DNA of 32,000 nt from an uncultured delta proteobacterium (GCA_963823335.1 CAWGLD010000001.1:556548-588547), one strand, 5' to 3'; shown: positions 154-28,053, numbered from the stretch's first letter. Notes: generated by a model not told the origin, from the letters alone. Translations and numbers: made by a program.

Positions 154-280
154 GGGGAAGGGTATGAAGGGACCGAGGGTCCAGGGTTCGAGGGTGATAC
201 AAGGGTTGGAGAGTGGCTGAGGGCAGTGAGCGAAAGGCACCTAATCGTCTACAGTCTAAACCGCTAAAAGGCTAACCAGG
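154..280 (+). repeat. Composite intergenic repeat, copy A (G-rich GGGTTCGAGGGT-like arm, conserved core 215-242, CTAAA-rich tail)
   Basis: Core GGCTGAGGGCAGTGAGCGAAAGGCACCT and tail TCTACAGTCTAAACCGCTAAAAGGCTAACC are near-identical to 3469-3530. They are clearly alignable with 11729-11785 and 15861-15910. Confidence 0.85.
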
Positions 281-293
281 GAGTTGACCGTCA

Positions 294-755
294 ATGAATC
301 AGGGTCATATAAAAAAGATCGCAGAAAACCGAAAAGCGCGTTACGATTTTCATATCGAAGATACCTATGAGGCCGGAATTGTACTGCTCGGGACTGAAGT
401 TAAATCCCTCCGAACAGGCCGGGCCAACCTGAAAGACTCTTACGCCAAGGTTACCAATGGGGAGGTGTTCGCACACCAGATTCACATCGGCGCTTATCCC
501 TTCGCCTACTACGACAACCACGACCCTTTGAGGGTTAGAAAACTTCTTTTGAAAAATCATGAAATCAAACGGCTCTACGCAAAAGTCAACGAGAAGGGAT
601 ATTCTCTGATACCCTTGAGCCTCTACTTCAAGGACGGCAAGGCCAAGATGACCCTGGCCCTGGCAAAAGGCAAACGCAAGTACGACAAACGGGAATCCAT
701 CAGAAGCCGAGATGAAAAAAGAGATCTGGATCGTCAGAGAAAAGAGTACAAATAA
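294..755 (+). CDS. smpB: SsrA-binding protein SmpB
   Basis: 153 aa. N-terminus IAENRKARYDFHIEDTYEAGIVLLGTEVKSLR and basic C-terminal tail are typical of SmpB. Confidence 0.95.
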   Translation: MNQGHIKKIAENRKARYDFHIEDTYEAGIVLLGTEVKSLRTGRANLKDSYAKVTNGEVFAHQIHIGAYPFAYYDNHDPLRVRKLLLKNHEIKRLYAKVNEKGYSLIPLSLYFKDGKAKMTLALAKGKRKYDKRESIRSRDEKRDLDRQRKEYK

Positions 756-808
756 AATCGCTGTGCGACTTTATTTGCGAATGCGTTCAGAGTAGATGGA
801 GTACTCTC

Positions 809-1186
809 ATGTCACTGAAAAAAACACCGAACACATCCAACAACCGTGACCGGATTGTTGCGGAAGCCCGTCGCGAACAGGCGCGTCGAGAAAAAAGCTA
901 CCGGGAACGGGCGCTCAAGATGTTCCCCTGGATATGTGGTCGTTGCGGTCGTGAATTTTCCGGACAGCGTGTTCGAGAACTGACCGTGCATCACAAGGAT
1001 CACGACCACGACAACAACCCGCCGGATGGGAGCAACTGGGAACTGCTCTGCATCTACTGCCACGACAACGAACACTCACGGGACCAGGTGGCAGAGTGGT
1101 ACCAACAGACCCCTGCGGATGACGAGTCGTCTCCGGTGGTCGGCCACAAGCCCTTTGCCGGTCTTGCCGATCTTTTAAAAAAATAA
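809..1186 (+). CDS. yajD: YajD-type HNH endonuclease family protein
   Basis: 125 aa. YRERALKMFPWICGRCGREF...LTVHHKDHDHDNNPPDGSNWELLCIYCHDNEH matches the YajD HNH signature. Confidence 0.85.
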   Translation: MSLKKTPNTSNNRDRIVAEARREQARREKSYRERALKMFPWICGRCGREFSGQRVRELTVHHKDHDHDNNPPDGSNWELLCIYCHDNEHSRDQVAEWYQQTPADDESSPVVGHKPFAGLADLLKK

Positions 1187-1238
1187 TACCAGTATAAAAT
1201 CGGGTAAGATCCTCTTTTCCCGAACACAAGGACTTGCA

Positions 1239-2447
1239 ATGAACAACCCGCCTGCAGTAGCCGTTGTCGGTACATTTGATTCAAAGGGAGAAGAACATCT
1301 GTTCCTCAAGAACCGTATTGAAGAATTGGGGCTCCAGGTGTTGACCGTAAATGTCGGGACCAGAGAACCCATTCCCTTCGAAGTATCCCATGACCTGTAT
1401 GCGTCCATGAAAAAGGATGCGACACTGGATGACAGTAACCGGGACAAAGCCATTCAGGGAATGATCCATGGAGGCATACAGTTAATAAAACAACTGTATC
1501 GCGATGGTAAAATCCAGGCCATGATATCCGCCGGCGGTGGCAGTGGAACGCACCTCTGTTCCAGTATCATGCGCGAACTCCCTATCGGGGTTCCAAAGGT
1601 GATGGTTTCAACCGTTGCCTCTCGAGACATGAAGCACACTGTCGGCACCAAAGACATCACCATGATGCACAGCGTGGTGGACCTGCTGGGGGTGAACAGC
1701 ATTTCCGGAATTATTCTGGACAAGGCCGCAGCAGCCGTTTGCGGCATGACCATGAGTCAATGGCGGCCTGCTAAAGACAAAAGACGTATTGCACTCTCAT
1801 TTTTCGGCTTCATCACAAAATCGGCCGAAGCAGTTAAAAAGGCCCTGGAGGGCATGGGCTATGAAGTGATTCCCTTTCATGCCAATGGCACCGGCGGTAT
1901 GGCCATGGAGGAGCTGGCCGCAGAAGGATATTTTGACGGCATTCTCGATCTGGCAACCCATGAACTGGCCGATGCGTTGATGGGTGGCTACTGCAGCGGC
2001 ATCGGGCCCGGGCGTTTCGAGCCGTCTGCGGGGAAAAATATTCCCCGGCTGATCACACCGGGAGGTCTTGACTGTGCCGTGCTCGAATTTACTCGCCAGC
2101 ATGTTCCCGAAGAATACAGGAACCGCAAGGTATTTTATTATGACTTCAGATCCGCCATTCGCCTCACCCTCGAAGAGAGCCGGGTACTGGCTGAACAGCT
2201 GTCTGACAGACTGAACAAGGACGTGAAAAATGTTCATGTCCTGGTTCCCACCCAAGGATGGTCCGAAGCAGACCAGCAGGACGGACCGCTGTATGACCCT
2301 GAAACAAATGCATATCTGGTTAAAATTTTCAAAGAAAAACTGGACAAACGCATTCAGCTTCAGGAAATCGACATGCACATCAATGATCCTGGTTTTGCTC
2401 AAATTGCGGCCAATGTAATGGATCAGATGGTCAAAGAGCGCAGCTAA
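1239..2447 (+). CDS. UPF0261 / Tm-1-like ATP-binding domain protein, paralog 1
   Basis: 402 aa, ATG with AAGGA 7 nt upstream. Conserved blocks GGGSGT, PIGVPKVMVSTVASRD and GTKDITMMHSVVDLLGVN are shared with ORFs 3796-5007 and 15977-17188. Confidence 0.8.
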   Translation: MNNPPAVAVVGTFDSKGEEHLFLKNRIEELGLQVLTVNVGTREPIPFEVSHDLYASMKKDATLDDSNRDKAIQGMIHGGIQLIKQLYRDGKIQAMISAGGGSGTHLCSSIMRELPIGVPKVMVSTVASRDMKHTVGTKDITMMHSVVDLLGVNSISGIILDKAAAAVCGMTMSQWRPAKDKRRIALSFFGFITKSAEAVKKALEGMGYEVIPFHANGTGGMAMEELAAEGYFDGILDLATHELADALMGGYCSGIGPGRFEPSAGKNIPRLITPGGLDCAVLEFTRQHVPEEYRNRKVFYYDFRSAIRLTLEESRVLAEQLSDRLNKDVKNVHVLVPTQGWSEADQQDGPLYDPETNAYLVKIFKEKLDKRIQLQEIDMHINDPGFAQIAANVMDQMVKERS

Positions 2448-2487
2448 ATGTCTAACTCCGAATATCAAAAGCGGAGATCTTCCAAAA

Positions 2488-3366
2488 ATGATTATCAAAC
2501 CCGATTGCATCCCCTGTATCTTGAACATGTCTTTGCACTATCTTCGCAAACTGTCCCTTGGCGAGGAACAGGTCAACAAGATCTGTTCAGATATTCTGAC
2601 ATTGCGACCCCTCAGGGGAGAGATATGGGATATCACCAGCCCGGAAATCATCGAGCCGATCATGAAGAAAATCATGTCCGCTGTCGGCAGTCACGATCCC
2701 TTTGCAGTTGAAAGGGTAAAGCAGAACCAGAAGATGCTGACGCTGTATCCACAGCTGCAAAAAATGGTAAAGACAGCTGAGCATCCATTTAAAGCAGCAG
2801 CACACCTCGCCGGTCTTGGAAATGCCATCGATGTCATGCTGGTGGGGGGTGCCACAGATATTCAGAAAATCATCAAAGAACAACTCGCCGATCCTCTGCC
2901 GGAAAATGTATTAGAGATACTTGAAAAACGGATCATGAGCAGTCGCCACATTCTCTACTTTGGCGACAATGCCGGAGAAATCGTTCTGGACAGGCTGTTC
3001 ATCGAAACGATCAAAGAGCACTATGATACAGACATTACCTTTGTGGTCAGAAGTATGCCGACCTTGAACGATGCAACCCTGAAAGATGCAGAACAGACAG
3101 GTATGGCCAATCTGGTGCGTGTCATGGAGAACGGTATCGATGGTCCTGTCCCCGGAACCCTGCTGAATCGATGCTCAGGTGAGTTGCAGCGTCTTTTTCA
3201 GGAGGCGGATCTGATCATATCCAAAGGCGGTGGGAATTTTGACACCCTGGATGAGCTGCCGGAGAAGCGCAAAAGCAAGATATCCTATCTGCTGCTGTCA
3301 AAATGCCGCCCCTACCAAGAGCATTTTGGTGTGGGATTGCAGCGGGCGATACTATTTAACGCTTAG
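2488..3366 (+). CDS. DUF89 (ARMT1-like) metal-dependent phosphatase family protein
   Basis: 292 aa. N-terminal KPDCIPCILN CxxC, GDNAGEIVLD and SKGGGNFDTL blocks are typical of the DUF89 damage-control phosphatase family. Confidence 0.75.
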   Translation: MIIKPDCIPCILNMSLHYLRKLSLGEEQVNKICSDILTLRPLRGEIWDITSPEIIEPIMKKIMSAVGSHDPFAVERVKQNQKMLTLYPQLQKMVKTAEHPFKAAAHLAGLGNAIDVMLVGGATDIQKIIKEQLADPLPENVLEILEKRIMSSRHILYFGDNAGEIVLDRLFIETIKEHYDTDITFVVRSMPTLNDATLKDAEQTGMANLVRVMENGIDGPVPGTLLNRCSGELQRLFQEADLIISKGGGNFDTLDELPEKRKSKISYLLLSKCRPYQEHFGVGLQRAILFNA

Positions 3367-3380
3367 AGAACTTTAAAAAA

Positions 3381-3562
3381 GGGTTTGAGGGTGATACAAG
3401 GGTGGTACAAGGGTTCGAGGGGGATAAAGGGGTTCGAGGGTCAGAGGGGGATACAAGGGTTGGAGGGTGGCTGACAGCAGTTAGCGAAAGGCACCTAATA
3501 GTCTACAGTCTAAACCGCTAAAAGGCTAACCAGGGGTGGAGGGTGGTACAGGGGTTGGAGGG
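3381..3562 (+). repeat. Composite intergenic repeat, copy B (long G-rich arm, core 3469-3496, CTAAA tail, second G-rich arm)
   Basis: Starts 14 nt after the DUF89 stop. Core GGCTGACAGCAGTTAGCGAAAGGCACCT and tail are near-identical to copy A. Confidence 0.85.
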
Positions 3563-3568
3563 AAATAA

Positions 3569-3790
3569 CTGTCATTTGCTTCGCGTAAATGAAAATGTTT
3601 CAGCTGTTAGGTTTTAAGTGTTAGGTAAGTCACGGGCTAAGAGCAACAATAAATTACGCGCGCAGCGCAAATGACAGCCGAAGGCGAAATGTCGCGCGCA
3701 GCGCAAATGTCGTCCGCTAGGACAAATGACGCACGAAGTGCAAATGACATCCGAAGGATAAATGACGCCTGAAAGGCGAATGCACAGGGG
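3569..3790 (+). repeat. AAATGAC 18-nt tandem and inverted repeat element, copy 1
   Basis: Left arm TGTCATTTGCTTCGCG (inverted unit). About seven tandem units AAATGACNNCCGNAGGNN run from 3651 to 3778 with 18-nt phase (units begin 3651, 3669, 3687, 3705, 3724, 3742, 3760). A CAGCTG plus GTTTTAAG/GTTAGG module is nested at 3601-3630. Homologous to 28818-28985. Confidence 0.85.
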
Positions 3791-3795
3791 GGCCC

Positions 3796-5007
3796 ATGCA
3801 GAAACCAAGCGTACTTCTTGTGGCAACAATGGATACCAAGTTCAGGGAAGCCGGCTTCATAGAATCCTGTCTCAAAGAATCCGGCTGTGCGGTCACGGTT
3901 ATGGATGCCGGGATTCGTGGCGATAGCCCCGTACCTGTCACAATTACAAGACACGAAGTCGCCCGGGCCGGCGGAAAAACATTATCGGAAATTCAATCCA
4001 TAGGCCACGAAGGCGAAGCTCTCAACATGATGCTCATGGGCGCCTGCAGGATTGCGGACGAAATGATCGCCAAGGGTGCCGTCATTGGTGTCATAAGTCT
4101 GGGCGGCTCCATGGGAACCACACTCGGTACGGGTGTCATGCGCCGATTTCCCATCGGGGTCCCAAAGGTGATGATCTCCACCATGGCCTCCAGGGATACC
4201 CGCACGTTTGTGGGAACAAAAGACATTCTTATGCTGCACGCCGTCTGTGATCTCTCGGGCCTCAACCGGTTTTCGAGAAAAATACTCCACAACGGCGCCA
4301 TGGCCCTCTACGGCATGGTGTCCCGGAGCCGGAAAGACATTTCATCAGACAAATCCATGATCTTTATTTCCACTCTGGGAACCACCGAGAAATGTGTTCA
4401 GGAGATACGCGCCTCCCTCGAAAAACAGGGTAAGGAAGTCGTGGTCTTTCACACGGTGGGTTCCGGCGGCAGAGCCATGGAAGAACTCATCGCCTCAGAA
4501 CCGGTTGAAGCCCTGGTGGACCTCTCCCTGCATGAAATGGCGGATCATCGTTTCGGAGGGGATTACGATGCAGGACCTGACAGGGGTTCCGTGGCATTGA
4601 AAAAGGGGATTCCGGTCGTCCTGGTACCCGGAAATATCGATTTTCTTGTGTCAGGACCGCTGGAGCAGTCCCTGAAAGATTTTCCCGATCGGCCGTACCA
4701 TGTTCACAATACAGCCATTACGGTTGTACGAACGACCCGTGAAGAGATTGAAAGCATTGCCCGGCATGTAGGGGATTATTGTAATGCCGCCCCTGGACCG
4801 TACACCCTGGTAATTCCCATGAAGGGATTTTCAGCCTTTGACGCCATAGAGGGGCCGCTTCACGACCCCCAGGCACCGACCTGCTTTGTCAAAGCCCTGG
4901 AATCCCAGCTGTCCGACACATCACGGATGCACACCCTGCCATACCACATCAATGATTCCGGCTTTTCTGCAGCTGTGATTGAAAAGCTCCAAGAACTGTT
5001 GCCCTGA
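3796..5007 (+). CDS. UPF0261 / Tm-1-like ATP-binding domain protein, paralog 2
   Basis: 403 aa. Carries GGSMGT, PIGVPKVMISTMASRD and GTKDILMLHAVCDLSGLN, the same block order as paralogs 1 and 3. Confidence 0.8.
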   Translation: MQKPSVLLVATMDTKFREAGFIESCLKESGCAVTVMDAGIRGDSPVPVTITRHEVARAGGKTLSEIQSIGHEGEALNMMLMGACRIADEMIAKGAVIGVISLGGSMGTTLGTGVMRRFPIGVPKVMISTMASRDTRTFVGTKDILMLHAVCDLSGLNRFSRKILHNGAMALYGMVSRSRKDISSDKSMIFISTLGTTEKCVQEIRASLEKQGKEVVVFHTVGSGGRAMEELIASEPVEALVDLSLHEMADHRFGGDYDAGPDRGSVALKKGIPVVLVPGNIDFLVSGPLEQSLKDFPDRPYHVHNTAITVVRTTREEIESIARHVGDYCNAAPGPYTLVIPMKGFSAFDAIEGPLHDPQAPTCFVKALESQLSDTSRMHTLPYHINDSGFSAAVIEKLQELLP

Positions 5008-5013
5008 TCTCTA

Positions 5014-5388
5014 TCAGAAGCCATCAACAACCATCTTCCTGAAAAAAGCTATTGTGTCTTTTGCTTCAGTAATTACTGAATAAATAAGAACGCAAAACTG
5101 AAGACCAAAAATAACGCTTTCTAAAATAAAGAACTGTCTTGGGCTTGCGGTAAAAACAAGAAAAGGAACCAGTATCGCCGATAGCCAGAGAAAAATATAA
5201 CGGAATATAATCTTTTTCTTCCGATTTTTTTCCCTTATCAGAGAAATAATTTTCAACATAACATAAACAATAATAATATCCGAGATGCTCCACAATATCC
5301 CTTGAACTTTTGTGGTCAACAGATAGGCTTCTGTTGAAAAGCTCTTACCTATTTCCCAAAAAAACATATCTGTTAATTCTGAGATCAT
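5014..5388 (-). CDS. Hypothetical small integral membrane protein (AT-rich islet)
   Basis: 124 aa, several hydrophobic helices. Start overlaps the upstream gene stop (ATGA at 5385-5388). Helix ILWSISDIIIVYVMLKIISLIR resembles helices of the 198-aa neighbour. Confidence 0.55.
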   Translation of the reverse strand: MISELTDMFFWEIGKSFSTEAYLLTTKVQGILWSISDIIIVYVMLKIISLIREKNRKKKIIFRYIFLWLSAILVPFLVFTASPRQFFILESVIFGLQFCVLIYSVITEAKDTIAFFRKMVVDGF

Positions 5389-5981
5389 GCTAGCTTCTTT
5401 TTTAATAGGAAGAATATTTTAAGCCCAATCAGACCAACAATCCATTCTATGATAATCCAGAACATCCCGCATATTTTGATGTAAAAAGTAAAAGAATTTT
5501 GTATGTTCCTATGGGTATACCCGTCCATATCGACCAATGAGCCAAGATATGAATGGTAGGCAGCATAAAATGAAAAAAGACCTAGGAAGAATATACCCGG
5601 CCCAAATAAAAGAATCCTATTAAGTATTGGTTTTTTTCTCTCGATAACAATTCTTAACAGATTATAGATTTTGAAAACATAAATAACGATAGCCGCCTCG
5701 ATTGCTACCCAGAGGGTGCAAAAGAAATTCCACAAATAGCTGTAATAGAAATATCCTAATGGTTTGTATTTATTGCTTAAATACTTGTCGATATGTATCT
5801 CCTGGCCGAAGTTCAAACAGACAAGAAGAACAAAAACAGTGATACAAAAATAGATAAATGCTATTTGCCGGGCGTCACCATTTTTAAGAAAAATAAACCC
5901 TTTTCTGATATAAATCATAACCAATCCTTCGGCGAACAGCCAAAAGATTCCCATGATCTTTATAAAGAATGATAAACTCAT
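5385..5981 (-). CDS. Hypothetical integral membrane protein with an internally repeated W-x3-E helix motif (AT-rich islet)
   Basis: 198 aa. Three similar helices: IMGIFWLFAEGLVMIYIRKGFIFLK, CTLWVAIEAAIVIYVFKIYNLLR and ICGMFWIIIEWIVGLIGLKIFFLLK. Confidence 0.55.
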   Translation of the reverse strand: MSLSFFIKIMGIFWLFAEGLVMIYIRKGFIFLKNGDARQIAFIYFCITVFVLLVCLNFGQEIHIDKYLSNKYKPLGYFYYSYLWNFFCTLWVAIEAAIVIYVFKIYNLLRIVIERKKPILNRILLFGPGIFFLGLFSFYAAYHSYLGSLVDMDGYTHRNIQNSFTFYIKICGMFWIIIEWIVGLIGLKIFFLLKKKLA

Positions 5982-6014
5982 GTCTCTTAACCTGGATGAC
6001 GCCTACAACATTTT

Positions 6015-6695
6015 CTAAACGAGCATATCCGTCAAATCCGCGATGCTGTCAATGACGGCATCCGGGTTTTCCCGGCTCAACGCTTTATGGTCGTCAAACC
6101 CGGTGAGCACGCCAACCGTCTTCATCCCGGCTGCCTTACCCGCCTGAATATCTATACGCGCATCCCCCACATACATGCAGTCCCGGGGCAGGACGCCAAG
6201 ACTTTTACAGCCCTTTATCAATGGATCCGGCGCCGGCTTTTTACGGGGTGCATCCTCTGCATGGATGATGAACTCCAGCAGCTTGTCAATGCCTGAGTCC
6301 ACCAGTGTCGGCAGTTTGACCGCCATGCTTTGCCGGGGCGTGGATGTAACAATGCCCATCCTGATCCCTTTTTGCACCATGGCCTGCAGGGCTTTTTTTG
6401 CATCAGGGATCAGTTTTACCTGGTTTCTGAAAAGATTTGGATATATTTCGGCAATGATCTCACGGGTTTTCTTTATCAGGTGGTCTTTTTCTTGGGGTGT
6501 TTTTTTCGGGAACACACTGCCCCATTCAAAATCACCATTTTTTGCTGCCTCCCGAAGTCTGTCCCTGGAAGGCATCGGAAAATCGAGTCGATTGAATACT
6601 ATTTCAATAATCTGGTAGTATATGTGAATGGAGTCCAGAATCGTTCCATCGAGGTCAAACAAAACAGCAGTCACATTAATTTTCTTATTGTTCAC
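6015..6695 (-). CDS. HAD-superfamily hydrolase (subfamily IA, phosphoglycolate phosphatase/PpaX-like)
   Basis: 226 aa. Motif I VLFDLDGTILDS, motif II IVTST, and C-terminal YVGDARIDIQAGKAAGM. Confidence 0.8.
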   Translation of the reverse strand: MNNKKINVTAVLFDLDGTILDSIHIYYQIIEIVFNRLDFPMPSRDRLREAAKNGDFEWGSVFPKKTPQEKDHLIKKTREIIAEIYPNLFRNQVKLIPDAKKALQAMVQKGIRMGIVTSTPRQSMAVKLPTLVDSGIDKLLEFIIHAEDAPRKKPAPDPLIKGCKSLGVLPRDCMYVGDARIDIQAGKAAGMKTVGVLTGFDDHKALSRENPDAVIDSIADLTDMLV

Positions 6696-7277
6696 CTAAT
6701 TATCCTGCGCTTTCTTCTTGTGCATCCAAAAATAGTAAAAGGCCAACAAGGTCATGCCATTGTCGATGCGATTGTCATGAATCTCGGAAGAAACATGGGC
6801 CAGGGGAAGCTTGATGACATCCAGGTCTTCCCCTTCATCCAAGGCGGGTGCCTGCTGAAATTCAGCATCCATGGCCAGGCATACAACACATTTGTTGCTC
6901 AATATGGCCGGCTGGGGAAAACATTCACCAATCACACGAAAATCCCTGGATCCATAGCCGGTCTCCTCCAAAAGCTCTCTCCGGGCGGCTGCAATGGGAG
7001 AAGGATCATCCGGGTCCACCAGCCCGCCAGGCAGCTCCAGGTGTACCTTCTCGGTGCCATGGCGGTACTGGTTGACCATCACGACTTCCTGTTCCGCGGT
7101 AAGCGCCAGCACCACAACCCAGGTGGGGAAGTGAATGGCCATCACATTCATGGTCTTCCCGGTTCTGGGCGAGCGTGCCTCTTTTGATTCTATCTGCATG
7201 AGTTTGAAATCATGCAGGATTTTTCGATTCAATATTTTCCACGGTCGGATCATTCTGACAACTCCTTGATTACGCAA
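6696..7277 (-). CDS. Nudix hydrolase (ADP-ribose pyrophosphatase/NudF-like)
   Basis: 193 aa. QYRHG block and Nudix box GGLVDPDDPSPIAAARRELLEETGY. The stop abuts the HAD start codon. The true start may be the internal Met at 7250. Confidence 0.8.
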   Translation of the reverse strand: MRNQGVVRMIRPWKILNRKILHDFKLMQIESKEARSPRTGKTMNVMAIHFPTWVVVLALTAEQEVVMVNQYRHGTEKVHLELPGGLVDPDDPSPIAAARRELLEETGYGSRDFRVIGECFPQPAILSNKCVVCLAMDAEFQQAPALDEGEDLDVIKLPLAHVSSEIHDNRIDNGMTLLAFYYFWMHKKKAQDN

Positions 7278-7279
7278 TG

Positions 7280-7400
7280 TTTTAGGTGTTAGGTATTAAG
7301 TTTTAGGTTCAGCCACAAGACAGGTGCCCCTTTGCTGTCCGCTAATGGCCGTCACCCTTATACCACCCTCCGACCCTCCAACCCCCTCATCACCCTCACC
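7280..7400 (-). repeat. Composite intergenic repeat, copy E (reverse orientation, diverged core)
   Basis: The reverse complement reads GGTGAGGGTGATGAGGGGGTTGGAGGGTCGGAGGGTGG...GACGGCCATTAGCGGACAGCAAAGGGGCACCT...CCTAAAACTTAATACCTAACACCTAAAAC. Its G-rich arm overlaps the LysR stop codon. Confidence 0.7.
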
Positions 7401-8343: not shown

Positions 8344-8414
8344 GAACGTCTTCCTTTTTGAAGTATCTCCCAACAAGTCACGGGGCAAGCGCGCGCTGTC
8401 GTGTTTCAAAACTT

Positions 8415-8431
8415 TTATTTATGGAAAATAA
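8415..8431. promoter_or_regulatory. Candidate LysR-type operator (inverted repeat TTATTT-N5-AAATAA)
   Basis: Perfect 6-bp arms containing a T-N11-A, about 72 bp upstream of the LysR start, in the AT-rich divergent region. A second 12-bp palindrome ATAAATATTTAT lies at 8498-8509. Confidence 0.35.
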
Positions 8432-8660
8432 ATCACATAAGAAAATGTTATAATCAACATAAATTTAATTGAATTGACAGAATATTTTAGTTACTCCATA
8501 AATATTTATATTATATCTCCTTCTGCTGCTGAATGTTTTTGCTGATACTTCTTACTGAGACTGGTTTCAGAGCCTCCATTATTCATCGTCCAAGCTTACC
8601 CTGCGGACCTTCAGGGTTCGGCAAAATTCCTATTAACCCCACACAAAAAGGAGGATAAAA

Positions 8661-10517
8661 ATGCCGGACGAAAAAGGAAGATTTCCAGATCCCCACGAGA
8701 TTCAGGTTCCCCCGGAACTTGAGGGATGGGAGGAGATGTATCCATCACATCACCTCTTTTCCAAGGACAGAGCAGACTGGGAAAAAGCGCAATTCTGGTA
8801 TCAGGACAAGATCCATGCACCCGAGCCGGTGCCACCCCTGGATCTCATTTTTCAGGAGGCGTGGCAGATCTCCCTTTCCCAGTACACTACCCGGGTATTT
8901 TGTATTCCACCTGCCCAGGGAATCGCCCAGAGAATGGTGGGCTGTTACCTGTACATCTGTGCCATTGCGCCCCCACCCGACGAAATTATCGGCCAGAAAG
9001 CAGCCCTGTTCGAAAAACGCGTTTTCTATGTATTTGAGCACTATGATGAACTGTGGGAAAAATGGCTCACAAAGTTCAAGGCGCTGGGCCAGGAAATGGA
9101 GGACGTGAAGGTCCCGGCGGAGTTGCCGAAATTTGTTCCGGATGATGAAGTGCTGCCCGCGCCTAAGGGCTACTACGATTCATACACACTCCTCGAATCT
9201 TTCGACAAACTTGTCAACCAGATGTTCAAGGGCTGGCAATATCATTTTGAAATGCTCAATCTGACCTATCTGGCCTACCTCATGTTTGCCGATGTAGCCA
9301 GAAAACTTTTCCCGGGAATCAGTGAAAGCGCCATCGGCAAGATGGTGGCCGGCGCATATGTTTCCATGTTCAAACCGGAGGAGGAATTGTGCCGACTCGC
9401 CAGACTGGCACATTCGACCCAGGCCGTGGCGGATATTTTAAGGAGCGACAACACGGCGGCGGAAAAAATCGCCACGCTTGAAAAAATATCTGAAGGTAAA
9501 AACTGGCTGGCGGAATATGAAAAATCCAAAGACCCCTGGTTCTCTGTGTCCTGCGGCAGCGGCTGGTTTCATCATGAAGGCAGCTGGACAACCAACCTCG
9601 ATATTCCTTTCAGCTATCTCAAGAGTTATGTGGACCGTTTAGCCAATGGAGAAACCATCGAACGTGCCCTGGAGGAGATCGGTAAAGAACGGGACAAAAT
9701 CGTCGAAGAATACAAAAATCTCATCCAGACCGACGAAGACAGACAATCCTTCGACGGTGCCTACAACACCATCCGAACCATCTATCGATATGCCGAGGAT
9801 CATCTCTTCTGGGTGGAACATTGGTTCCATACCATTTGGTACAGAAAAATCCGGAAGATCGGGAAACTGCTTGTCGACAACGGGATGATCGATCAAGTGG
9901 ATGACATTTTCATGTTCAACCGTTACGAAATTCCGCAACTTCTGACCGAAGTTTCAACGGCCTGGGCCCTGGGCGTAGACATACCCATGAGAAGTTCCCA
10001 CTACAAGGCCAAGGTTGTCAAGCGTCGAAGCATTCTGGAGGCCGCCGGAAAATGGAATCCGACACCGGCACTGGGTGTTCCGCCTGCAGAAGTGGCCGAG
10101 CCGTTTACGATCATGCTGTGGGGCATCACCACGGACAGGGTGCAGGAATGGCTCAAGGGCGTCGATGCGGCCCAGGAAGGCGATGTTTCCGAAATCAAAG
10201 GCTTTGCTTCTTCCGCCGGTGTAGCTCAAGGACCCGCAAGGGTACTGAAGTTACTCAAGGACATCCTGGATCTGCAGCCCGGAGAAGTACTGGTTTGTCC
10301 CTCAACCAACCCGTCCTGGGCACCTGTTTTTACCAACATCAAAGCAGCCGTTACCGACATTGGCGGTCTCACAAGTCATGCGGCCATCGTCTGCAGAGAA
10401 TACGGTATTCCGTCCGTCACGGGGACGGGTGTGGCTACGTCTGTTATCAAGACCGGCGATATCGTCAAGGTAGACGGCGATACGGGTTTGGTAGAGGTAA
10501 TCGAACGGGCAGGGTAA
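8661..10517 (+). CDS. Phenylphosphate-synthase alpha-like subunit (PEP-utilising enzyme mobile phospho-His domain, no ATP-grasp domain)
   Basis: 618 aa with strong RBS AAAGGAGGA. C-terminal swivel domain [23 protein letters not shown] holds the phospho-His. N-terminus [16 protein letters not shown] resembles PpsA-type proteins. Confidence 0.8.
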
Positions 10518-10555
10518 TCCGACACCTACGTTGCCCGAACAACCATTTAAGCATG

Positions 10556-10586
10556 TTTGGAGCGGTGTAACCAACGCCGCTCCAAA
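10556..10586 (+). other. Intercistronic stem-loop (10-bp perfect stem, 11-nt loop, no U-tract)
   Basis: TTTGGAGCGG-tgtaaccaacg-CCGCTCCAAA lies between the two synthase subunit genes. Confidence 0.6.
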
Positions 10587-10615
10587 CTTCCTAAAACCCG
10601 TAAACGGGGGTGGAA

Positions 10616-11686
10616 ATGGAGTATGTTCTTACTTTCCTGGAGGTAGACAAAAATTCACTGTCGCTGGTTGGCGGCAAAAACGCCAGTCTGGGAGAATTGA
10701 TAAAGGCGGACATTCGCGTGCCTCCCGGTTTTGCCGTAACCACGGAGAGTTATCATAAATTTATCACCGAAACCGGGATCAGGGACAAGATTTTCCAAAT
10801 ACTATCGGACATGAAGCCGGGAGACATTGCCGCCCTGAATGCCGCCAGCGAAAGTATCCAGACGCTGATACAGGGTTCAGCCCTGTCGGAAGACATCCGA
10901 TCGGCCATCGAAAAAGCATATGCGGAGCTCTGCGCCGACTGCCGGGTAATCGACATGCCGGTGGCGGTTCGTTCAAGCGCTACGGCCGAAGACCTGCCCA
11001 CGGCCAGCTTCGCCGGTCAACAGGACACCTATCTCTGGATTCAGGGTCACAAAGATGTCGCGGAAAAGGTTCAGCGCTGCTGGGCCAGCCTGTTTACACC
11101 CCGGGCCATCGATTATCGTGTAAAAAATAAGTTTGCACATGAGAAAGTTCTGATCAGCGTAGGGGTTCAGAAAATGGTGAACTCCAGAGCTGCCGGGGTT
11201 ATGTTTACATTGAACCCGACCGACGGCGACCTGTCCAAGGTCGTTATCGAAGGCAGCTGGGGGCTGGGGGAGACTGTCGTTTCCGGCTCCGTCAATCCGG
11301 ACAAGTTCGTGGTAGACAAGGTGGTCATGGAAACTTCAGACAAGACCATTTCCACCAAACACATCGCCTGCGTATACGACCCGCAGGCAGGTAAGGTCGT
11401 GGATGCGGATGTGGATGAAGACATGCAGTGCAAATGCTGTCTGGAGGATATGGAAGTCAAGGCCCTGGTGAGCATGGGCAAGTTGATCGAACGGCACTAC
11501 AAGCGCCCCATGGACATCGAATGGGCCATCGATAAAGACCTCGATTTCCCCGAGAATATCTTTATCGTGCAGGCGCGGCCGGAGACCGTCTGGAGCCAGC
11601 GTAAGACACGCTCGCTAATCGGCGCTAAAAGCGGCTATCAACTTTTGATGGAACAGGCCATGAAACGGATCAAGATACCCAGTTAA
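10616..11686 (+). CDS. Phenylphosphate-synthase beta-like subunit (PEP/pyruvate-binding ATP-grasp domain of PEP synthase)
   Basis: The ORF track starts at GTG 10610. The ATG at 10616 has ACGGGGG 5 nt upstream. LVGGKNASLGEL, VAVRSSATAEDLPTASFAGQQDTYL and DIEWAID are PPDK_N/PpsA N-domain hallmarks. Confidence 0.85.
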   Translation: MEYVLTFLEVDKNSLSLVGGKNASLGELIKADIRVPPGFAVTTESYHKFITETGIRDKIFQILSDMKPGDIAALNAASESIQTLIQGSALSEDIRSAIEKAYAELCADCRVIDMPVAVRSSATAEDLPTASFAGQQDTYLWIQGHKDVAEKVQRCWASLFTPRAIDYRVKNKFAHEKVLISVGVQKMVNSRAAGVMFTLNPTDGDLSKVVIEGSWGLGETVVSGSVNPDKFVVDKVVMETSDKTISTKHIACVYDPQAGKVVDADVDEDMQCKCCLEDMEVKALVSMGKLIERHYKRPMDIEWAIDKDLDFPENIFIVQARPETVWSQRKTRSLIGAKSGYQLLMEQAMKRIKIPS

Positions 11687-11691
11687 AAAAT

Positions 11692-11835
11692 AGGGTTCGA
11701 GGGTCCGAGGGTCCGAGTGGCGAAGGGTGGCTGACGGCAGTGAGCGAAAGGCACCTGCAGCCTATCGTCTAAACGCCTAAAAGAAGTGCTTGGTTCTCAG
11801 CTGAAATTAACACTAAAACCTAAAACCTAAAACGA
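11692..11835 (+). repeat. Composite intergenic repeat, copy C (G-rich arm, core 11729-11756, CAGCTG plus CTAAAAC x3 tail)
   Basis: Starts 6 nt after the PpsB-like stop. Core GGCTGACGGCAGTGAGCGAAAGGCACCT is identical to copy D. Confidence 0.85.
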
Positions 11836-11944
11836 AAATACTGCACTAACGTCTATACCGCAAAAAAAATCGTTTGGTAAAAATCATATGGGTTTTGTTT
11901 GCATGTTTGTTCAATTCTAACCAATAAAGGAGGACTGTTGCTCT

Positions 11945-13351
11945 ATGAAGAACATGAGAGATTTTATCACAGAAGGTGAGAAAAAGGGCCTGTGTAAACG
12001 AATTTCAGCTGAAGTCGATTGGAATCTGGAGTTGTCGCATATCGCCAAACTCAATGAAGAGCAAAAGGGTCCGGCGCTGCTGTTTGAAAATGTGAAGGAC
12101 TATGACACACCGGTGATTACCAGTGTCTGTACCACCCCTGAAAGACTGGCATTTATCCTTGGTCAACCATTGGATTCCACGCTTGTAGATCTCTACGCGC
12201 ACTGGGCCAAGCTGGGGGACAACCTGTTGGAGCCCAAGTATGTGGAAAAAGCGGATGCGCCATGCAAAGAGAATATCATCACCGGGGACGACATTGACCT
12301 TTTCAAATTCCCCGTGCCGCAGTGGTATCCTCTGGACGGGGGCCGTTATATCGGGACCGCTCATTTCTTCATCAGCAAGGATCCCGAAACCGGCTGGGTA
12401 AACCTGGGAACCTACAGGGCTCAGCTATTGGGAAAAGACAAGATTGGCACCCAGTTTATCAAGGGCAAACATGCCGACATCATGCTGAAGAAATATCAAG
12501 CCATGGGGAAACCCATGCCGGTGGCTTCAGTAATCGGGTGTGATCCTCTGCTTTTTATCCTCGGTGCAGCACGCGTTTCAGCTTTTACTTCAGAATACGA
12601 TGTGGCAGGCGCCCTGCGCGGTGAGCCTGTAGAAGTCGTTAAAGGAGAAATCGTCGATCTGCCCATTCCGGCACATGCCGAGATCGTGCTCGAAGGAGAA
12701 GTGGATGCCGACAAATTTATGGAAGAAGGACCGTTCGGTGAATATACCGGGTATTATTCCGGCGTTGGTACGGATCCACGCAATTTCATGGATGTCCAAT
12801 GTGTCACCCATCGTAACAATCCGATTCTCTGGGGAACCACCGTCGGCCGGGCCGTTACAGACACGCACATGACCATGGCACTGTCATATGGGGCCACCCT
12901 TTGGCAACAATTGTTGGCCATGAAGATTCCAGGCTTGAAAGCGGTTTACTGCCCGCCGGAAGGCTCCGGACGGTTTTTGGCCATCATCTCCATGAAGCAG
13001 ATGTATCCCGGGCATGCAGACCAGGTGCTCACGGCTGCCATTTCAACGGAAATGGGTGCCTATGGTCTGAAAACCGTCATCGTCGTGGATGAGGATATCG
13101 ACCCCTGGGATATTCCCCGGGTCCTGTATGCCTTGAGTTTCAGATTCCAGCCCAACCGCAGTCAGGTCATCAAGAGAGGGCGGTCCACACCACTGGATCC
13201 GTCTCTGCCCATCAATGCGCGGGAAATTACCGGTAGACTTTTGTTGGATGCCACCATACCCTATGACTGGAAACACAAACCGATTCCCATTGAACTGGAC
13301 GCGGAAATGGTGAAAAGAGTCAAGTCGCGATGGTCTGAGTTGGGGTTATAA
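11945..13351 (+). CDS. UbiD-family (de)carboxylase, phenylphosphate-carboxylase alpha/beta-like
   Basis: 468 aa. VDWNLELSHIAKLNEEQKGPALLFE, EGPFGEYTGYY and KRGRSTPLDP blocks are typical of UbiD/Ppc-type carboxylases. AGGAGG lies 11 nt upstream. Confidence 0.85.
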   Translation: MKNMRDFITEGEKKGLCKRISAEVDWNLELSHIAKLNEEQKGPALLFENVKDYDTPVITSVCTTPERLAFILGQPLDSTLVDLYAHWAKLGDNLLEPKYVEKADAPCKENIITGDDIDLFKFPVPQWYPLDGGRYIGTAHFFISKDPETGWVNLGTYRAQLLGKDKIGTQFIKGKHADIMLKKYQAMGKPMPVASVIGCDPLLFILGAARVSAFTSEYDVAGALRGEPVEVVKGEIVDLPIPAHAEIVLEGEVDADKFMEEGPFGEYTGYYSGVGTDPRNFMDVQCVTHRNNPILWGTTVGRAVTDTHMTMALSYGATLWQQLLAMKIPGLKAVYCPPEGSGRFLAIISMKQMYPGHADQVLTAAISTEMGAYGLKTVIVVDEDIDPWDIPRVLYALSFRFQPNRSQVIKRGRSTPLDPSLPINAREITGRLLLDATIPYDWKHKPIPIELDAEMVKRVKSRWSELGL

Positions 13352-13385
13352 AAATAAAAACGCTCAATTTAGGAGGAGTTAGGTA

Positions 13386-13901
13386 ATGTCCGATACCGAC
13401 ATGATAGAAGACAAAAAGGTTCTGGTGGTTGATGATGAACAGGACATTCTGGAGGTTTTGGAAGAACTGCTGGATATGTGCCATGTGACAACAGCGTCGA
13501 CCTTTGATCAGGCTAAAACCCTGTTGGAAACCCAGGCCTTTGACATCGCGATTCTCGATATCATGGGGGTTGACGGATATCGCCTGTTGGAAATTGCCAA
13601 CAAGAAAAAGATACCCGCAATTATGCTTACAGCGCATGCATTCTCTGCCGGCAACCTGGTAAAGACCATCAAAGAGGGTGCCTATGCCTATGTTCCCAAA
13701 GAAGAAATCGGCCGGATCGCCGAGTTTCTTTCAGATGCCTTGAACGCCAAAAAACAAGGCAAAAATCCCTGGCGCGTCTGGGAGGAAAGACTGCCGTCAT
13801 CCTATTTTGAAAAAAGATGGGGGGCGGCCTGGAAGAATTCGGACCGGGACTTCTGGAACAAATTCAGGGAAAGCATCAAAACGCGGGATGGGAAAAAATA
13901 A
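13386..13901 (+). CDS. Stand-alone response-regulator receiver domain protein with a Trp-rich C-terminal extension
   Basis: 171 aa with AGGAGG RBS. VLVVDDE, phospho-acceptor AILDIMG, MLTAH and YVPKEE give the full receiver residue set. No DNA-binding domain. Confidence 0.8.
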   Translation: MSDTDMIEDKKVLVVDDEQDILEVLEELLDMCHVTTASTFDQAKTLLETQAFDIAILDIMGVDGYRLLEIANKKKIPAIMLTAHAFSAGNLVKTIKEGAYAYVPKEEIGRIAEFLSDALNAKKQGKNPWRVWEERLPSSYFEKRWGAAWKNSDRDFWNKFRESIKTRDGKK

Positions 13902-13912
13902 CGCAGTTATCC

Positions 13913-13934
13913 CCAACCAGGATAAACCGGTTGG
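13913..13934 (+). other. Stem-loop after the receiver gene (CCAACCAGG-ATAAA-CCGGTTGG, one bulge, no U-tract)
   Basis: Read directly from the sequence, 12 nt after the stop codon. Confidence 0.3.
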
Positions 13935-13980
13935 AGTGAAGCGAAAACCCTGGCTTGCCGGGGAAAAGATAAGACCTTTT

Positions 13981-14060
13981 ATCACGAAAGCACGAAAGTA
14001 CGAAAACACGAAAATTTTCATGGTCTTTTTCGTGTTTTTCAGATTTCGTGTTTTCGTGAT
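13981..14060. repeat. CACGAAA short-unit palindromic repeat (about 35-nt imperfect arms)
   Basis: ATCACGAAAGCACGAAAGTACGAAAACACGAAAA-ttttcatgg-...TTTTCGTGTTTTTCAGATTTCGTGTTTTCGTGAT. The left arm holds four CACGAAA-like units and the right arm their complements. Confidence 0.85.
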
Positions 14061-14158
14061 TGCTTATATTTTTTTGCCACATAATTTACAAATTTTACAG
14101 TGCTCTGTGTCATTTGGACTTTATAGATAAGCATGAAAAAGAAAGAAGGAGGTTTGAA

Positions 14159-15814
14159 TTGAAACCGATTCGTTACCAGAAAGATATGATCGATGAATTT
14201 GTGACCGATGGTTACTGGACCGAAGAGCTTTTCTATGACTTCTGGGATAGAAATGCCCGGGAAATCGGTAACCGGGAAGCGCTGGTAGACTCGAAATATC
14301 GCCTGACATGGTCTGAAGCCAAAAAACTGGTGGACGCCATGGCCATTTCCTGGGTGGAAATGGGAATTCCCAAACATTCCCGGGTCATCATTCAATCGCC
14401 CAACAGTGTCTACGGGTTTCTCGCCCGAATCGCCTGTGAGAGGGCCGGACTCATTTCTCTTACGGTCTATCCATACCTTCGTCAGAGGGAATTGGAGTAC
14501 ATGCTGGAGAAAACAGAGGCCAAGGCAGTCGTTATTCTGAACATCTACAACAAATTCAATTATCTAAAAATGTACACGGAGCTCCAGAAACAGTTTCCCC
14601 ATCTAAAATATTTTTTTCTTTTCGACGATGACGTTCCGGACGATGCGCCTGCGGGTACCTATTCGCTGCCCCGGATGACCCAGCTCCGGGCAGAAAAACC
14701 AGTGGACGCATCCGTGCTGGCAGAACGCAGGTTGGACCCGTTCTGGAACATCTCCCTGCTCACGACCACATCCGGCACCACCGGTATCCCCAAGCTGGTG
14801 GAGTGGCCCACCGCGCCCCGCGTCTGCACATCCAAAGGCAGATGCGCCATCTGGAACCTCAACCGTGACGACACCACCATGGCCATCGCCCCTCATGCCG
14901 GCGGAGCGGCTGGAACACTGACGTATTTCGCCGCCCCCATTGCCGGTGCCAAAACCGTGATGTTGGAGGAGTTTTCCGGCGAAGGCGCGCTGGCGCTCAT
15001 CGAAAAAGAGAAAGCTACGGCCATCGGTGTGGTTCCCACCCACCTTATACGGATGCTGGAGGCCGACGTCTCCAAATACGATCTGAGTTCTCTGCGGTTT
15101 ATCCGCTCGGCCGGCGGGTATTTATCACCCCAGGTGGCCGAAGAAGCTGAAAACGCATTTAAGGCAAGCATTACCAGCGACCTTGGGACCCAGGACAAGG
15201 GATCGGTGTCCGGGTGCAGCGTAGAGGATTCAAAGGATCTTCGCCGCAGAACCGTCGGCCGCATGCTTCCGGGCAACAAGGTGAGATTGCTGGACAAGGA
15301 CACCGGCAAAGAAGTGCCCGAGGGCGAACCCGGAGTTCTCTGGCTCAGGGGCCCCCACGCCCCGGCAGGATACTTCCGGGACGAGGAATTGACCGCCACG
15401 GTGTTCGACAAGGACGGATGGACCACCACGGAGGATATCGTCAAATTCGATCAGGGCTGTCTGTGGATTCTGGGCCGGGCCAAGGACATGATCATCCGGG
15501 GAGGACAGAACATCTATCCTGCAGAGATCGAGGGCCTGCTCAATGATCATCCCGGGGTATCGTCTGTAGCGGTTGTGGGGTATCCGGACCGGGAGATGGG
15601 TGAACGGTGCTGTGCCTACGTCATCCCCAAGCCTGGTGTGGATTTTTCCTTTGACGAAATGGTTTCTTTTCTCAAGGGGAAAAATATTGCCATGTTCAAA
15701 CTTCCGGAACGGCTCGAAATTGTGTCTGAGTTTCCCCTGGTGGGAGATTCGGGCAAGGTCAACAAGGAAACCTTGAAGGAACAGATCAAGGCATTGGTTG
15801 AGAAGGGGAGCTAA
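14159..15814 (+). CDS. AMP-forming aryl-carboxylate-CoA ligase (ANL superfamily, EntE/4-hydroxybenzoate-CoA ligase-like)
   Basis: TTG start at 14159 with AGGAGG 6 nt upstream; the ORF-track start at 14060 lies inside the palindromic repeat. Motifs TTTSGTTGIPKLVE, GRAKDMIIRGGQNIYPAEIE and C-terminal SGKVNK. Confidence 0.85.
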   Translation: MKPIRYQKDMIDEFVTDGYWTEELFYDFWDRNAREIGNREALVDSKYRLTWSEAKKLVDAMAISWVEMGIPKHSRVIIQSPNSVYGFLARIACERAGLISLTVYPYLRQRELEYMLEKTEAKAVVILNIYNKFNYLKMYTELQKQFPHLKYFFLFDDDVPDDAPAGTYSLPRMTQLRAEKPVDASVLAERRLDPFWNISLLTTTSGTTGIPKLVEWPTAPRVCTSKGRCAIWNLNRDDTTMAIAPHAGGAAGTLTYFAAPIAGAKTVMLEEFSGEGALALIEKEKATAIGVVPTHLIRMLEADVSKYDLSSLRFIRSAGGYLSPQVAEEAENAFKASITSDLGTQDKGSVSGCSVEDSKDLRRRTVGRMLPGNKVRLLDKDTGKEVPEGEPGVLWLRGPHAPAGYFRDEELTATVFDKDGWTTTEDIVKFDQGCLWILGRAKDMIIRGGQNIYPAEIEGLLNDHPGVSSVAVVGYPDREMGERCCAYVIPKPGVDFSFDEMVSFLKGKNIAMFKLPERLEIVSEFPLVGDSGKVNKETLKEQIKALVEKGS

Positions 15815-15817
15815 AAC

Positions 15818-15913
15818 AGGGTCCAGGGGTGATACAAGGGTGGTAAGAGGGTTCGAGGGTGGCTGACGGCAGTGAGCGAAAGGCACCTAAAAGCCTACAG
15901 TCTAAAGCCCTAA
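15818..15913 (+). repeat. Composite intergenic repeat, copy D (G-rich arm, core 15861-15888, CTAAA tail)
   Basis: Starts 4 nt after the CoA-ligase stop. The core is identical to copy C. Confidence 0.85.
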
Positions 15914-17188: not shown

Positions 17189-17225
17189 TTGACCATATGC
17201 CTCTTGAAAAAGTAGCTCCTCTGGG

Positions 17226-17245
17226 ATAAAGAATCGATTCTTTAT
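17226..17245. promoter_or_regulatory. Perfect 20-bp palindrome ATAAAGAATCGATTCTTTAT (candidate operator)
   Basis: Exact dyad read from the sequence, 117 bp upstream of the ubiX start in a 173-bp gap. Confidence 0.4.
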
Positions 17246-17361
17246 TCTGCTGGGAAGCGAGGATGCTTGGAGACTGGGATGCTGCTGTCCGTTTTTATCT
17301 CTCAGCCACCCTCGAATCCTTGGCCTCTGGAACCCTTTTTCCTAAAAAAAGCGAGGTACCC

Positions 17362-27968: not shown

Positions 27969-28043
27969 GCGACTGTCAGCCATCAGCTGTTAGCCGACTT
28001 AAAACCTAACACCTAAAACTTAAAACCGTCTTAAACTTAAAAC
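27969..28043 (+). repeat. CAGCTG plus CTTAAAAC/CCTAACAC A/C-rich repeat module
   Basis: GCGACTGTCAGCC-AT-CAGCTGTTAGC followed by CTTAAAACCTAACACCTAAAACTTAAAACC...CTTAAACTTAAAACC. Related modules occur at 3601-3630 (inverted), 7281-7310 (inverted) and 11798-11834. Confidence 0.75.
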
Positions 28044-28053
28044 CAGAATTAAT

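Follow-up and report, generated by a model that had tools for sequence, protein, structure and literature searches.

Why does the same repeat turn up, copy after copy, directly behind a stop codon? The question arises from a stretch of 32,000 nucleotides (nt) from an uncultured delta proteobacterium (GCA_963823335.1 CAWGLD010000001.1:556548-588547), which we call the window and always mean at its full length. A first-pass annotation of the window had described five copies of a composite repeat, made of a G-rich arm, a core of about 28 nt and a C/A-rich, G-poor tail, and had placed every one of them behind the stop codon of a co-oriented gene. We show that the start of this element is strongly biased to positions just behind co-oriented stops, and that the bias extends to other genomes. 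Our tentative answer, to which we give a probability of roughly 0.4, is that the element belongs to a family of mosaic, foldback repeats that would be transcribed with the upstream gene and work as a module of its mRNA 3' end.

Element starts usually lie just behind co-oriented stop codons

There are six copies in the window (c1 to c6). Copy c1 (154..282, plus strand; arm 154-214, core 215-242, tail 243-282) occupies the 140-nt spacer between ptsI, which stops with TAG at 151-153, and smpB, which has its ATG at 294. Copy c2 (3375..3562, plus strand) follows an ARMT1-like/DUF89 gene with a TAG stop at 3364-3366 and runs from an A-run (3375-3380) through an arm with 10 G-tracts (3381-3468), the core (3469-3496) and the tail (3497-3531) to a terminal short G-arm (3532-3562); it is also found in an 85%-identical relative, L002 (L-numbers denote loci or contigs of relatives). 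Copy c3 (11687..11835, plus strand) lies behind the TAA (11684-11686) of a PPDK_N-type gene, with an A-rich run at 11687-11692, an arm at 11693-11728, the core at 11729-11756 and a tail at 11757-11835 that ends in three CTAAAAC heptads (11813-11833). The gene before c4 (15815..15913, plus strand) is an AMP-binding gene of the CoA ligase type, and its TAA (15812-15814) is followed by AAACA (15815-15818), the arm (15819-15860), the core (15861-15888) and the tail (15889-15913). The inverted copy c5 (7279..7395, minus strand) begins behind the TGA of a lysR gene (7396-7398, minus strand), with its arm at 7395-7354, a divergent core at 7353-7322 and a tail with CTAAAAC-type heptads at 7321-7279.

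These are the five copies first described, and we located all of them at or within a few bases of where they had been put. The layout of arm, core and tail also holds by composition, since arms are about 0.50 G and 0.07-0.17 C and tails are 0.12-0.21 G and 0.24-0.28 C. The 28-nt core is real in the four plus-strand copies, where the core pattern matches at 0-1 mismatch at precisely the four cores listed above and never in 100 dinucleotide-preserving shuffles of the window. It does not describe the inverted copy, whose core has diverged. Copy c6 (17225..17345, minus strand) surfaced through an inverted match to the arm/core junction at 17299-17322 in a repeat search. It consists of an A-run, an arm, GGTGGCTGAGAG and then a 'type III' core and tail. 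The arm and the GGTGGCTGA junction are shared with the other copies; the core type differs and aligns with units of L027, L030, L031 and L028. This copy is antisense to both of its neighbours, a UPF0261 gene (15977-17188) and ubiX. Read on the plus strand it is an inverted C-arm followed by TTTTT, 22 nt (17340-17362) ahead of the ubiX ATG, and it adjoins this start codon instead of a stop. Its C-arm is 95% complementary to the arm/core junction of c4 and lies 1.4 kb from the c4 arm, with the UPF0261 gene between them.

The arms of c1 to c5 start 0, 14, 6, 4 and 0 nt, respectively, past the co-oriented stop, with gene neighbours assigned from open reading frame (ORF) and Pfam calls. Under a null of uniform placement within each intergenic space, the combined p for the window copies alone is 0.0115. 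The C-termini of PtsI and ARMT1 end at the same residue in three relatives, so the stops in the window are native stops.

A census of the window and its relatives extends the bias to other genomes. It has one entry per non-orthologous spacer (n=22) and measures the offset from the stop to the first GGG; automatic scans for G-arms and C-arms were too noisy for counting, and curation was done by eye. The distance from a co-oriented stop to the arm is 0-14 nt in 16 of the 22 independent loci, with a median of 5 nt. The offsets among the relatives are 7 nt in L003, 5 in L021, 0 and 2 in L023, 5 and 4 in L024, 5 in L026, 8 in L030, 5 in L031 (minus strand), 5 in L016 and 0 in L034. TAA, TAG and TGA are all represented among these stops, and the gap between stop and arm is mostly an A-run. 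An upstream gene end in the same orientation is found at 19 of 22 loci (one-sided binomial against 0.5, about 4e-4); an earlier count that still included orthologues gave 20/23 (p 2.4e-4). The copy in L003 sits between convergent genes, which ties the element to the 3' end of the upstream gene and not to the downstream gene.

The relatives came from two kinds of search. Exact-core scans were run on a genome collection and a metagenome collection. The genome collection held true copies in one Desulfobacterales metagenome-assembled genome (MAG) only (GMC6.metabat2.208; L002, L003) and the metagenomes in a few contigs (L004/L016, L013, L014, L015); the remaining exact-core matches are chance occurrences inside genes (L001, L006-L012, L017). 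The frame through arm and core is open, so its translation could be used to query a protein collection, purely as a fishing device. This returned 14 "hypothetical proteins" (P0001-P0014), which are gene calls of 37-147 amino acids across repeat copies. The family generates spurious gene calls that are already in public protein sets. The contigs behind these calls yielded L021-L034 from several other assemblies. This fishing brought up related copies from about ten other metagenome contigs or MAGs, the JGI contigs 3300083231/3300082323 among them. An 828-kb ENA contig (ERZ25039603:contig_3802; L018, L025) is 98-99% identical to the window and extends it by 10 kb on each side. The 10 kb before the left end add one more G-arm copy, the LOG locus, and one arm-less remnant, while about 10 kb past the right end add none. 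Of the 52 kb read from the window's genome, a stretch of about 27 kb contains seven copies. A plasmid collection held no match to the element, and a literature search with the unit sequences returned unrelated primer matches only. These results give good support to reading the element as a superfamily of modular, non-coding repeats that lie between genes and are specific to one lineage, a small clade of uncultured Desulfobacterales.

Anatomy, complete foldback versions and turnover

The modules come in the order short A-run, G-arm, exchangeable core and tail, and complete copies add an inverted C-arm and then a T-run. The arm is a tandem series of 8-nt (GGGTYSRA) and 11-nt (GGGTGATACAA) units, each built on A-GGG-T. 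Among 120 arm units there are 69 8-mers, mostly GGGTTCGA, GGGTTGGA or GGGTTCAA, and 34 11-mers, mostly GGGTGATACAA. An A precedes 133 of 138 G-runs and a T follows 120 of 139. TRF reports periods of 8, 11, 19 and 27 in the arms, and the arm unit GGGTTCGAGGGT has 17 matches in the window at up to 2 mismatches where 3.0 are expected. The tail is made of 7-9-nt units (AGTCTAC, AGTCTAAAC, CGCTAAAAG, CTAAAAC, AGTCTTC; AGYCTTC in the JGI genome) and is 25-79 nt long in single copies. The CTAAAAC dimer matches the window 9 times against 0.13 expected. Such heptads also occur on their own, in either orientation: an array of YTAAAAC units, which belongs with the tails of c3 and c5 in one module family, lies directly upstream of the ATG at 28054 (27997..28052, plus strand), and tail-type heptads in inverse orientation lie between c2 and an array of mini-hairpins (3597..3627, minus strand).

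The core carries two mutually exclusive hairpins, H1 (GCTGA/TCAGC), which is 77% paired across copies, and H2 (CTGTCAG/CTGACAG), which is 81% paired; slid controls give 45% or less. Covariation is found only in H2 (2 and 7 of 500 shuffles reach the observed values), and this is a weak signal for related sequences. The check for core covariation that the first-pass annotation had called for thus gives little overall and something in H2. Several core types exist, and the predicted folds of whole window copies are not more stable than those of shuffled sequence (z 0.04 to 1.40), which argues against the stable small RNA of 60-100 nt that had been suggested. We read the core as a short, weak, switchable hairpin.

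Two further arrangements were seen. In an arm-less variant (L018 7694-7790, L013 632-716, L002 6007-6116), GGTGGCTGAC is joined straight to tail units, and the tail units have both orientations; the variant sits in the divergent spacer upstream of ptsH, a position conserved in three genomes. L021 has a 150-nt spacer between tandem G-arm units, present twice (9950-10100 and 10260-10410), which holds the long inverted repeat GAATATCGAATAATGAACAAGGAACCGCAGAAT ... ATTCTGCGGTTC and has been called as a gene (P0001).

The spacers of several relatives end in an inverted C-arm and then a T-run. Terminal inverted repeats are present in L027, L031, L030 and L023 and absent from the five window copies first reported; the C-arm of c6 finds a partner only in c4, across a gene. 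Stems between the two arms, followed by U-runs, are predicted in L027 (z=-7.1) and L031 (z=-4.2). The smallest complete copy, L023 15262-15372, starts 2 nt past the stop and is predicted to form a hairpin of about 30 bp (-46.8 kcal/mol, z=-3.3) that ends in U7, so it would resemble an intrinsic terminator. The C-arms that close the arrays in L023 and L024 precede promoter-like hexamers, picked out by eye, before rpsB and rplM. From these copies we derive a general layout of stop, A-run, G-arm, middle modules in either orientation, C-arm and T-run. The G-rich arm is then the left half of a foldback element with terminator-like complete versions, a relation that the first-pass annotation had overlooked. 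The window copies are half elements: c1 to c5 are left halves that lack the C-arm, and c6 supplies, on the sense strand, a C-arm and TTTTT before ubiX. They may be partly decayed. At L027 and L031 the outer borders show no direct repeat of the kind left by target-site duplication; their A-run and T-run are inverted to each other.

It is well supported that copies diversify through slippage of units and exchange of modules between copies. The number of arm units differs between alleles, and the c2 arm is 46 nt shorter in L015 than in the window. The core of c5 is replaced in the 98-99% identical strain L018 by a longer and only partly related sequence, while the arm start and the tail are identical; the LOG locus is likewise core-swapped between L013 and L018. 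The ptsI-smpB junction keeps its stop in three genomes with different contents behind it, namely a G-arm, type I core and tail in the window, an A-run, G-arm and another core in L028, and an AAGC-type core and tail without a G-arm in L002. Whole units are arrayed in 3-6 copies in the JGI genome. At L004 165-320 (minus strand) an ORF of 290 amino acids spans the A-run and the G-arm and ends at a TAA in the core, with the C-terminus ...ILQIKGSEGTRVRGLAGG*; here the repeat appears to have replaced or extended the 3' end of the gene.

What the element may do

The first-pass annotation had offered two explanations for the placement, a function in the 3' untranslated region (UTR) or a mobile element that prefers gene ends. 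The bias in placement and orientation and the turnover of a repeat family are both borne out, while the loci read turned up no transposase, terminal duplication or empty site that would speak for mobility. Our favoured reading is that the element is a module of the mRNA 3' end. It would be transcribed with the upstream gene, as a 3' UTR or an intercistronic spacer. In complete copies, pairing of the G-arm and the C-arm would form a long stem with U residues after it, right behind the stop, and this stem may be either an intrinsic-terminator-like structure or a barrier to 3' exonucleases. The half copies of the window would provide at most a G-tract barrier, capable of forming a G-quadruplex, and an unstructured C>G tail that Rho could use. 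What points this way is the placement and orientation, the convergent genes at L003, the terminator-like complete copies and the lack of ordinary terminators: there are no canonical terminator-like sites at these gene ends, and such sites are not enriched.

A bolder form of the same idea would make the A-run and the A-GGG-T arm a dedicated end-of-cistron signal, with a repeat family supplying the clade's terminators or 3' caps. Recognition of the arm would take place in RNA, through a G-quadruplex or through a protein specific for its sequence; the arm would be placed or kept at stops by a mechanism coupled to gene ends, and the core would be a swappable cassette. We think this improbable. If the arm truly marks cistron ends, it would show how 3' ends are formed or protected in poorly studied uncultured sulfate-reducers without evident canonical terminators, and it would provide a natural example of bacterial transcripts that tolerate arrays of G-tracts.

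A number of observations weigh against a role at the mRNA 3' end. The stop rule was said to hold always, in five copies of five; it holds for five of the six copies in the window and is broken at 6 of the 22 loci. The antisense copy c6 is one of these. L024 16391 and L027 4209 lie in divergent spacers, and at L004b an ORF runs through the arm to a stop inside the core. The arm at the LOG-gene locus starts about 45 nt past the stop, with a small hairpin in between, and that of L033 starts 117 nt past it, with antisense tail modules in between. The claimed distance of 0-15 nt stands for the 16 loci, five window copies among them; the detached tail-type heptads depart from the described placement too. 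A co-oriented downstream gene is present at all of the 16 rule-abiding loci except L003, so a link to the downstream gene is hard to exclude. Several loci were discovered through ORFs in the element's forward frame, and the orientation counts may be biased for this reason. Rapid replacement of the core argues against a sequence-specific function for it. The window copies, without C-arm or U-run and folding like shuffles, do not lend themselves directly to the terminator reading, and loops of 100-400 nt are atypically long for terminators. Arrays lie between ruvC, ruvA and ruvB, and c1 lies in the short ptsI-smpB spacer, with no visible promoter after them, so full termination within ruvCAB or between ptsI and smpB would be harmful. 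Finally, each functional step is one that we infer.

The main rival is that the element is selfish foldback DNA, similar to miniature inverted-repeat transposable elements (MITEs), without host function and filtered by selection. The G-arm and C-arm would be its terminal inverted repeats. It would enter A-rich stretches behind stops by insertion or recombination, only insertions with the G-rich strand in the transcript would survive, and the halves would be decay products. This fits the inverted arms of about 35-45 bp around 100-300 nt with their strongly negative fold z-scores, and it fits the tandem arrays with their changes in copy number, the local clustering and the variation of presence, absence and type among close relatives. 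The missing structural signal in the window copies is expected as well, and L004b lengthens an ORF as an insertion at a gene end would. We nevertheless find it unlikely on balance. A target-site duplication is not visible at complete copies, transposases were not found near the loci read, and neither was an empty site. Tight adjacency to TAA, TAG and TGA alike is hard to get from a DNA target motif. The ptsI junction persists while the inner modules differ in three relatives, and a fixed junction with differing modules speaks for remodelling in place rather than repeated insertion. Even a selfish family would be a useful marker for strain typing, because unit number and core type vary between 98-99% identical strains. 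A second alternative starts from the tail, which the first-pass annotation had linked to Rho. Ribosomes would leave at the stop, the unstructured, A-rich tail with more C than G would load Rho, and transcription would end downstream. The composition fits, and the tail forms no stable structure. Rho subunits bind 5 nt each with linkers of 4-5 nt (PMC12360218), which the 7-9-nt tail units (such as CTAAAAC, AGTCTTC and AGTCTAAAC) roughly match. A rho gene is present in the relative L023, and arrays would supply long C>G stretches. However, the optimal C>G, poorly structured stretch of a Rho-dependent terminator is 60-90 nt (PMC12360218), and tails are 25-45 nt in four of the five window copies first reported; only c3 and the arrays of relatives are long enough. 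The scheme gives no task to the G-arm, which is better conserved and better positioned than any other module. Tail modules occur antisense too, and arrays within ruvCAB argue against efficient termination. As the main explanation we therefore hold Rho to have a slim chance.

The remaining alternatives give the arm something else to do. It might cap the transcript as a G-quadruplex, in RNA or in non-template DNA, blocking 3'-to-5' exonucleases or pausing RNA polymerase and so stabilising the upstream cistron. Every arm has 4-10 tracts of three or more G with loops of 4-8 nt, the tracts are conserved and the loops variable, and the sense strand is the G-rich one at 19 of 22 loci. G4Hunter gives arm means of 1.03-1.43 and peaks of 0.92-1.96, but these are only near the usual threshold (around 1.2-1.5), and the peak of c3 is 0.92. 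The A and T on either side vary as little as the G-tract itself and are not needed for a quadruplex, which points instead to sequence-specific recognition or simple repeat ancestry, and the predicted partner of the arm in complete copies is the C-arm. A quadruplex cap as the main function is in our view quite improbable. The arm might also be a ribosome-capture track, a Shine-Dalgarno-like array that holds the 30S subunit after termination and couples translation to the next gene. GGAGG and GGTGAT do occur in arms, a co-oriented downstream gene is present at all but one rule-abiding locus, and of five arms tested, four have 16-78% of their 12-mers binding a generic anti-Shine-Dalgarno sequence (with the organism's 16S 3' end assumed) at -8 kcal/mol or better, where the background has 4%; in c3 no 12-mer does so. 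Composition-shuffled arms reach equal or lower minima in four of five cases, however, so the affinity is not above that of composition-matched shuffles. The invariant motif is AGGGT and not GGAGG, and L003 has no co-oriented downstream gene. We reject the array as an explanation and give it very little credence. The weakest candidate is a protein-coding one, a small ORF or a C-terminal extension made by readthrough or frameshifting, with W-L-T-A-V-S-E-R-H-L as the core frame. Every type I copy keeps the frame open from the arm across the core and into part of the tail, the variable core sites are at its third codon positions, and in c1 it is in register with the upstream TAG. Yet the frame lacks a start codon, its register with the upstream gene changes from copy to copy (0 in c1, -1 in c2 and c3), the arm units are 8 and 11 nt long, the 46-nt allelic deletion between L015 and the window breaks the frame, and the tail of L004b is out of frame. 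The three-base periodicity is explained by the variable sites being the H1 mismatch pair and the first loop base, and the same sites would also be four-fold degenerate on the opposite strand. Database matches are other repeat copies only, hypothetical proteins without Pfam domains. We reject coding and readthrough peptides as next to impossible. The first-pass annotation was right in substance that the core has no conserved reading frame.

Known repeat systems and other features of the neighbourhood

The family is best likened to known mosaic intergenic repeats, and it is distinctive in its tandem A-GGG-T arm, its anchoring at stop codons and its exchangeable core. The window copies show none of the defining features of REP elements, MITEs (target duplication), attC sites, MIRUs (internal ORF) or Rfam families. 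REP and BIME elements of Escherichia coli and other enterobacteria are also short non-coding repeats that form mosaics in transcribed intergenic space, at gene 3' ends or between cistrons. REP elements are reported to stabilise upstream mRNA, join in Rho-dependent termination and hinder terminating ribosomes when they lie within about 15 nt of the stop. A REP unit, however, is an imperfect palindrome of 20-40 nt with a conserved 5' tetranucleotide and is mobilised by RAYTs, whereas the positioned module here is a non-palindromic tandem array and the only palindromic piece is the 5-7-bp core hairpin. Orientation is strongly biased here in a way that sets the family apart from REP and BIME, and we found no RAYT gene among the loci read (about 52 kb of the window's genome). 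BOX elements of Streptococcus pneumoniae (boxA-boxB(n)-boxC) are likewise modular composites in which the number of internal subunits varies; they too are non-coding, lie between genes and are co-transcribed. BOX elements fold stably, and no stop-codon adjacency is known for them. There is no sequence relation between the two, the module of variable number here is the 5' arm, and the window copies have no fold signal.

Mycobacterial MIRUs share with this family tandemly repeatable units in intercistronic spacers, orientation with the gene and codon-level precision at the gene boundary. They are apparently mobile and insert at start codons (PMC12548453). The ends of the internal ORF of MIRU-type elements overlap the flanking stop and start codons, whereas there is no usable ORF here and the anchor is the upstream stop, not the downstream start. 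Foldback MITEs found in mRNAs, such as Correia/NEMIS of Neisseria and ERIC of enterobacteria, resemble the complete copies in their small size, terminal inverted arms, lack of a transposase and long predicted hairpins. The arms here are instead micro-repeats of variable number, no target-site duplication was found at the complete copies, and many copies are one-armed. The STRR heptamers of heterocystous cyanobacteria, whose unit is of the type CNNCAGT, are intergenic tandem heptamer arrays like the tails described here (CTTCAGT, CTACAGT, CTAAAAC). They belong to another phylum and are simple arrays, not fixed composites of arm, core and tail anchored at stops. Intrinsic terminators, including bidirectional ones with an A-tract, stem and U-tract, offer the last likeness, since a complete copy, which sits just behind the stop, is bounded by an A-run and a T-run and has a G-rich arm on its left and a C-rich arm on its right; the minimal L023 copy shows this as a single hairpin. 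The differences are that the stems come from a genome-wide repeat family with loops of 100-400 nt and that the window copies lack the right arm and U-tract.

Several other candidates were tried and rejected. Rfam gave no match at gathering thresholds for the whole window and none at E<=1 for 100-3900, and a hammerhead-like reading of CTGAnG...GAAA falls with this. An outer stem GGTG/CACC enclosing the core would pair in all subfamilies only if its register were shifted from one to another, and the alignment as read by eye has no covariation for it. The unit GGTTCGA resembles a T-loop, but ARAGORN finds nothing in the window and the arm units have no complementary 3' stem, so the element is not derived from a tRNA. 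Integron attC sites are imperfect palindromes with RYYYAAC ... GTTRRRY ends and stand after each cassette ORF. The element is not self-complementary, its ends are off the R''/R' consensus, and it is flanked by housekeeping and catabolic genes in conserved synteny.

A second repeat family occurs nearby. It consists of arrays of units of about 18 nt, each a mini-hairpin followed by AAATGAC or AAATGTC, in the window (3640-3795 and 28893-28989), L002 (3690-3830, minus strand), L021 (10500-10690), L026 (about 330-420), L028 (560-735 and 4180-4340) and, inverted, inside L027 (4440-4520). The hairpins have a 3-4-bp stem and a GNA/GAA(A) loop, and the stems vary yet stay complementary (GCGC/GCGC, GCC/GGC, TCC/GGA, GCAC/GTGC, CCC/GGG). 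TRF gives periods of 18 and 36. These arrays reach the start codon of a co-oriented downstream gene, often without an obvious ribosome-binding site, and often lie 3' of a G-arm element in the same spacer; Rfam has no match to them. The motif CTGTCATTTGCTTCGCG lies upstream of both arrays in the window (3569-3592 and 28819-28866, the latter in tandem with a 24-nt period at 28820-28866), and both L002 and L015 have kept it at the c2 locus. A small perfect palindrome, GGGATAAAGAATCGATTCTTTATTC, lies at 17216-17245 between the UPF0261 stop (17188) and c6. Two inverted arrays of four CACGAAAG octamers, with 34-nt arms that are 82% complementary and 12 nt apart, occupy 13981-14060 and end at the start of the CoA-ligase ORF (14060); they may be another foldback module or an operator.

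Three UPF0261 paralogues (1239-2447, 3796-5007 and 15977-17188) are interspersed with genes for a PEP-utiliser/PPDK_N protein, UbiD, an AMP-binding protein and the flavoprotein UbiX (8661-11686, 11945-13351, 14060-15814, 17362-17964). By its gene content this group would be a cluster for aromatic degradation of the phenylphosphate-synthase/carboxylase type. All six window copies lie within or border the UbiD/UbiX-type cluster; the remaining 16 kb of the window and the 10 kb beyond it contain none. From their location inside it, they may shape expression of its UbiD/UbiX, PEP-utilising and CoA-ligase genes. A small stand-alone HNH endonuclease gene (809-1186) lies directly 3' of smpB, and this position is kept in L002, L018, L019/L020 and L028.

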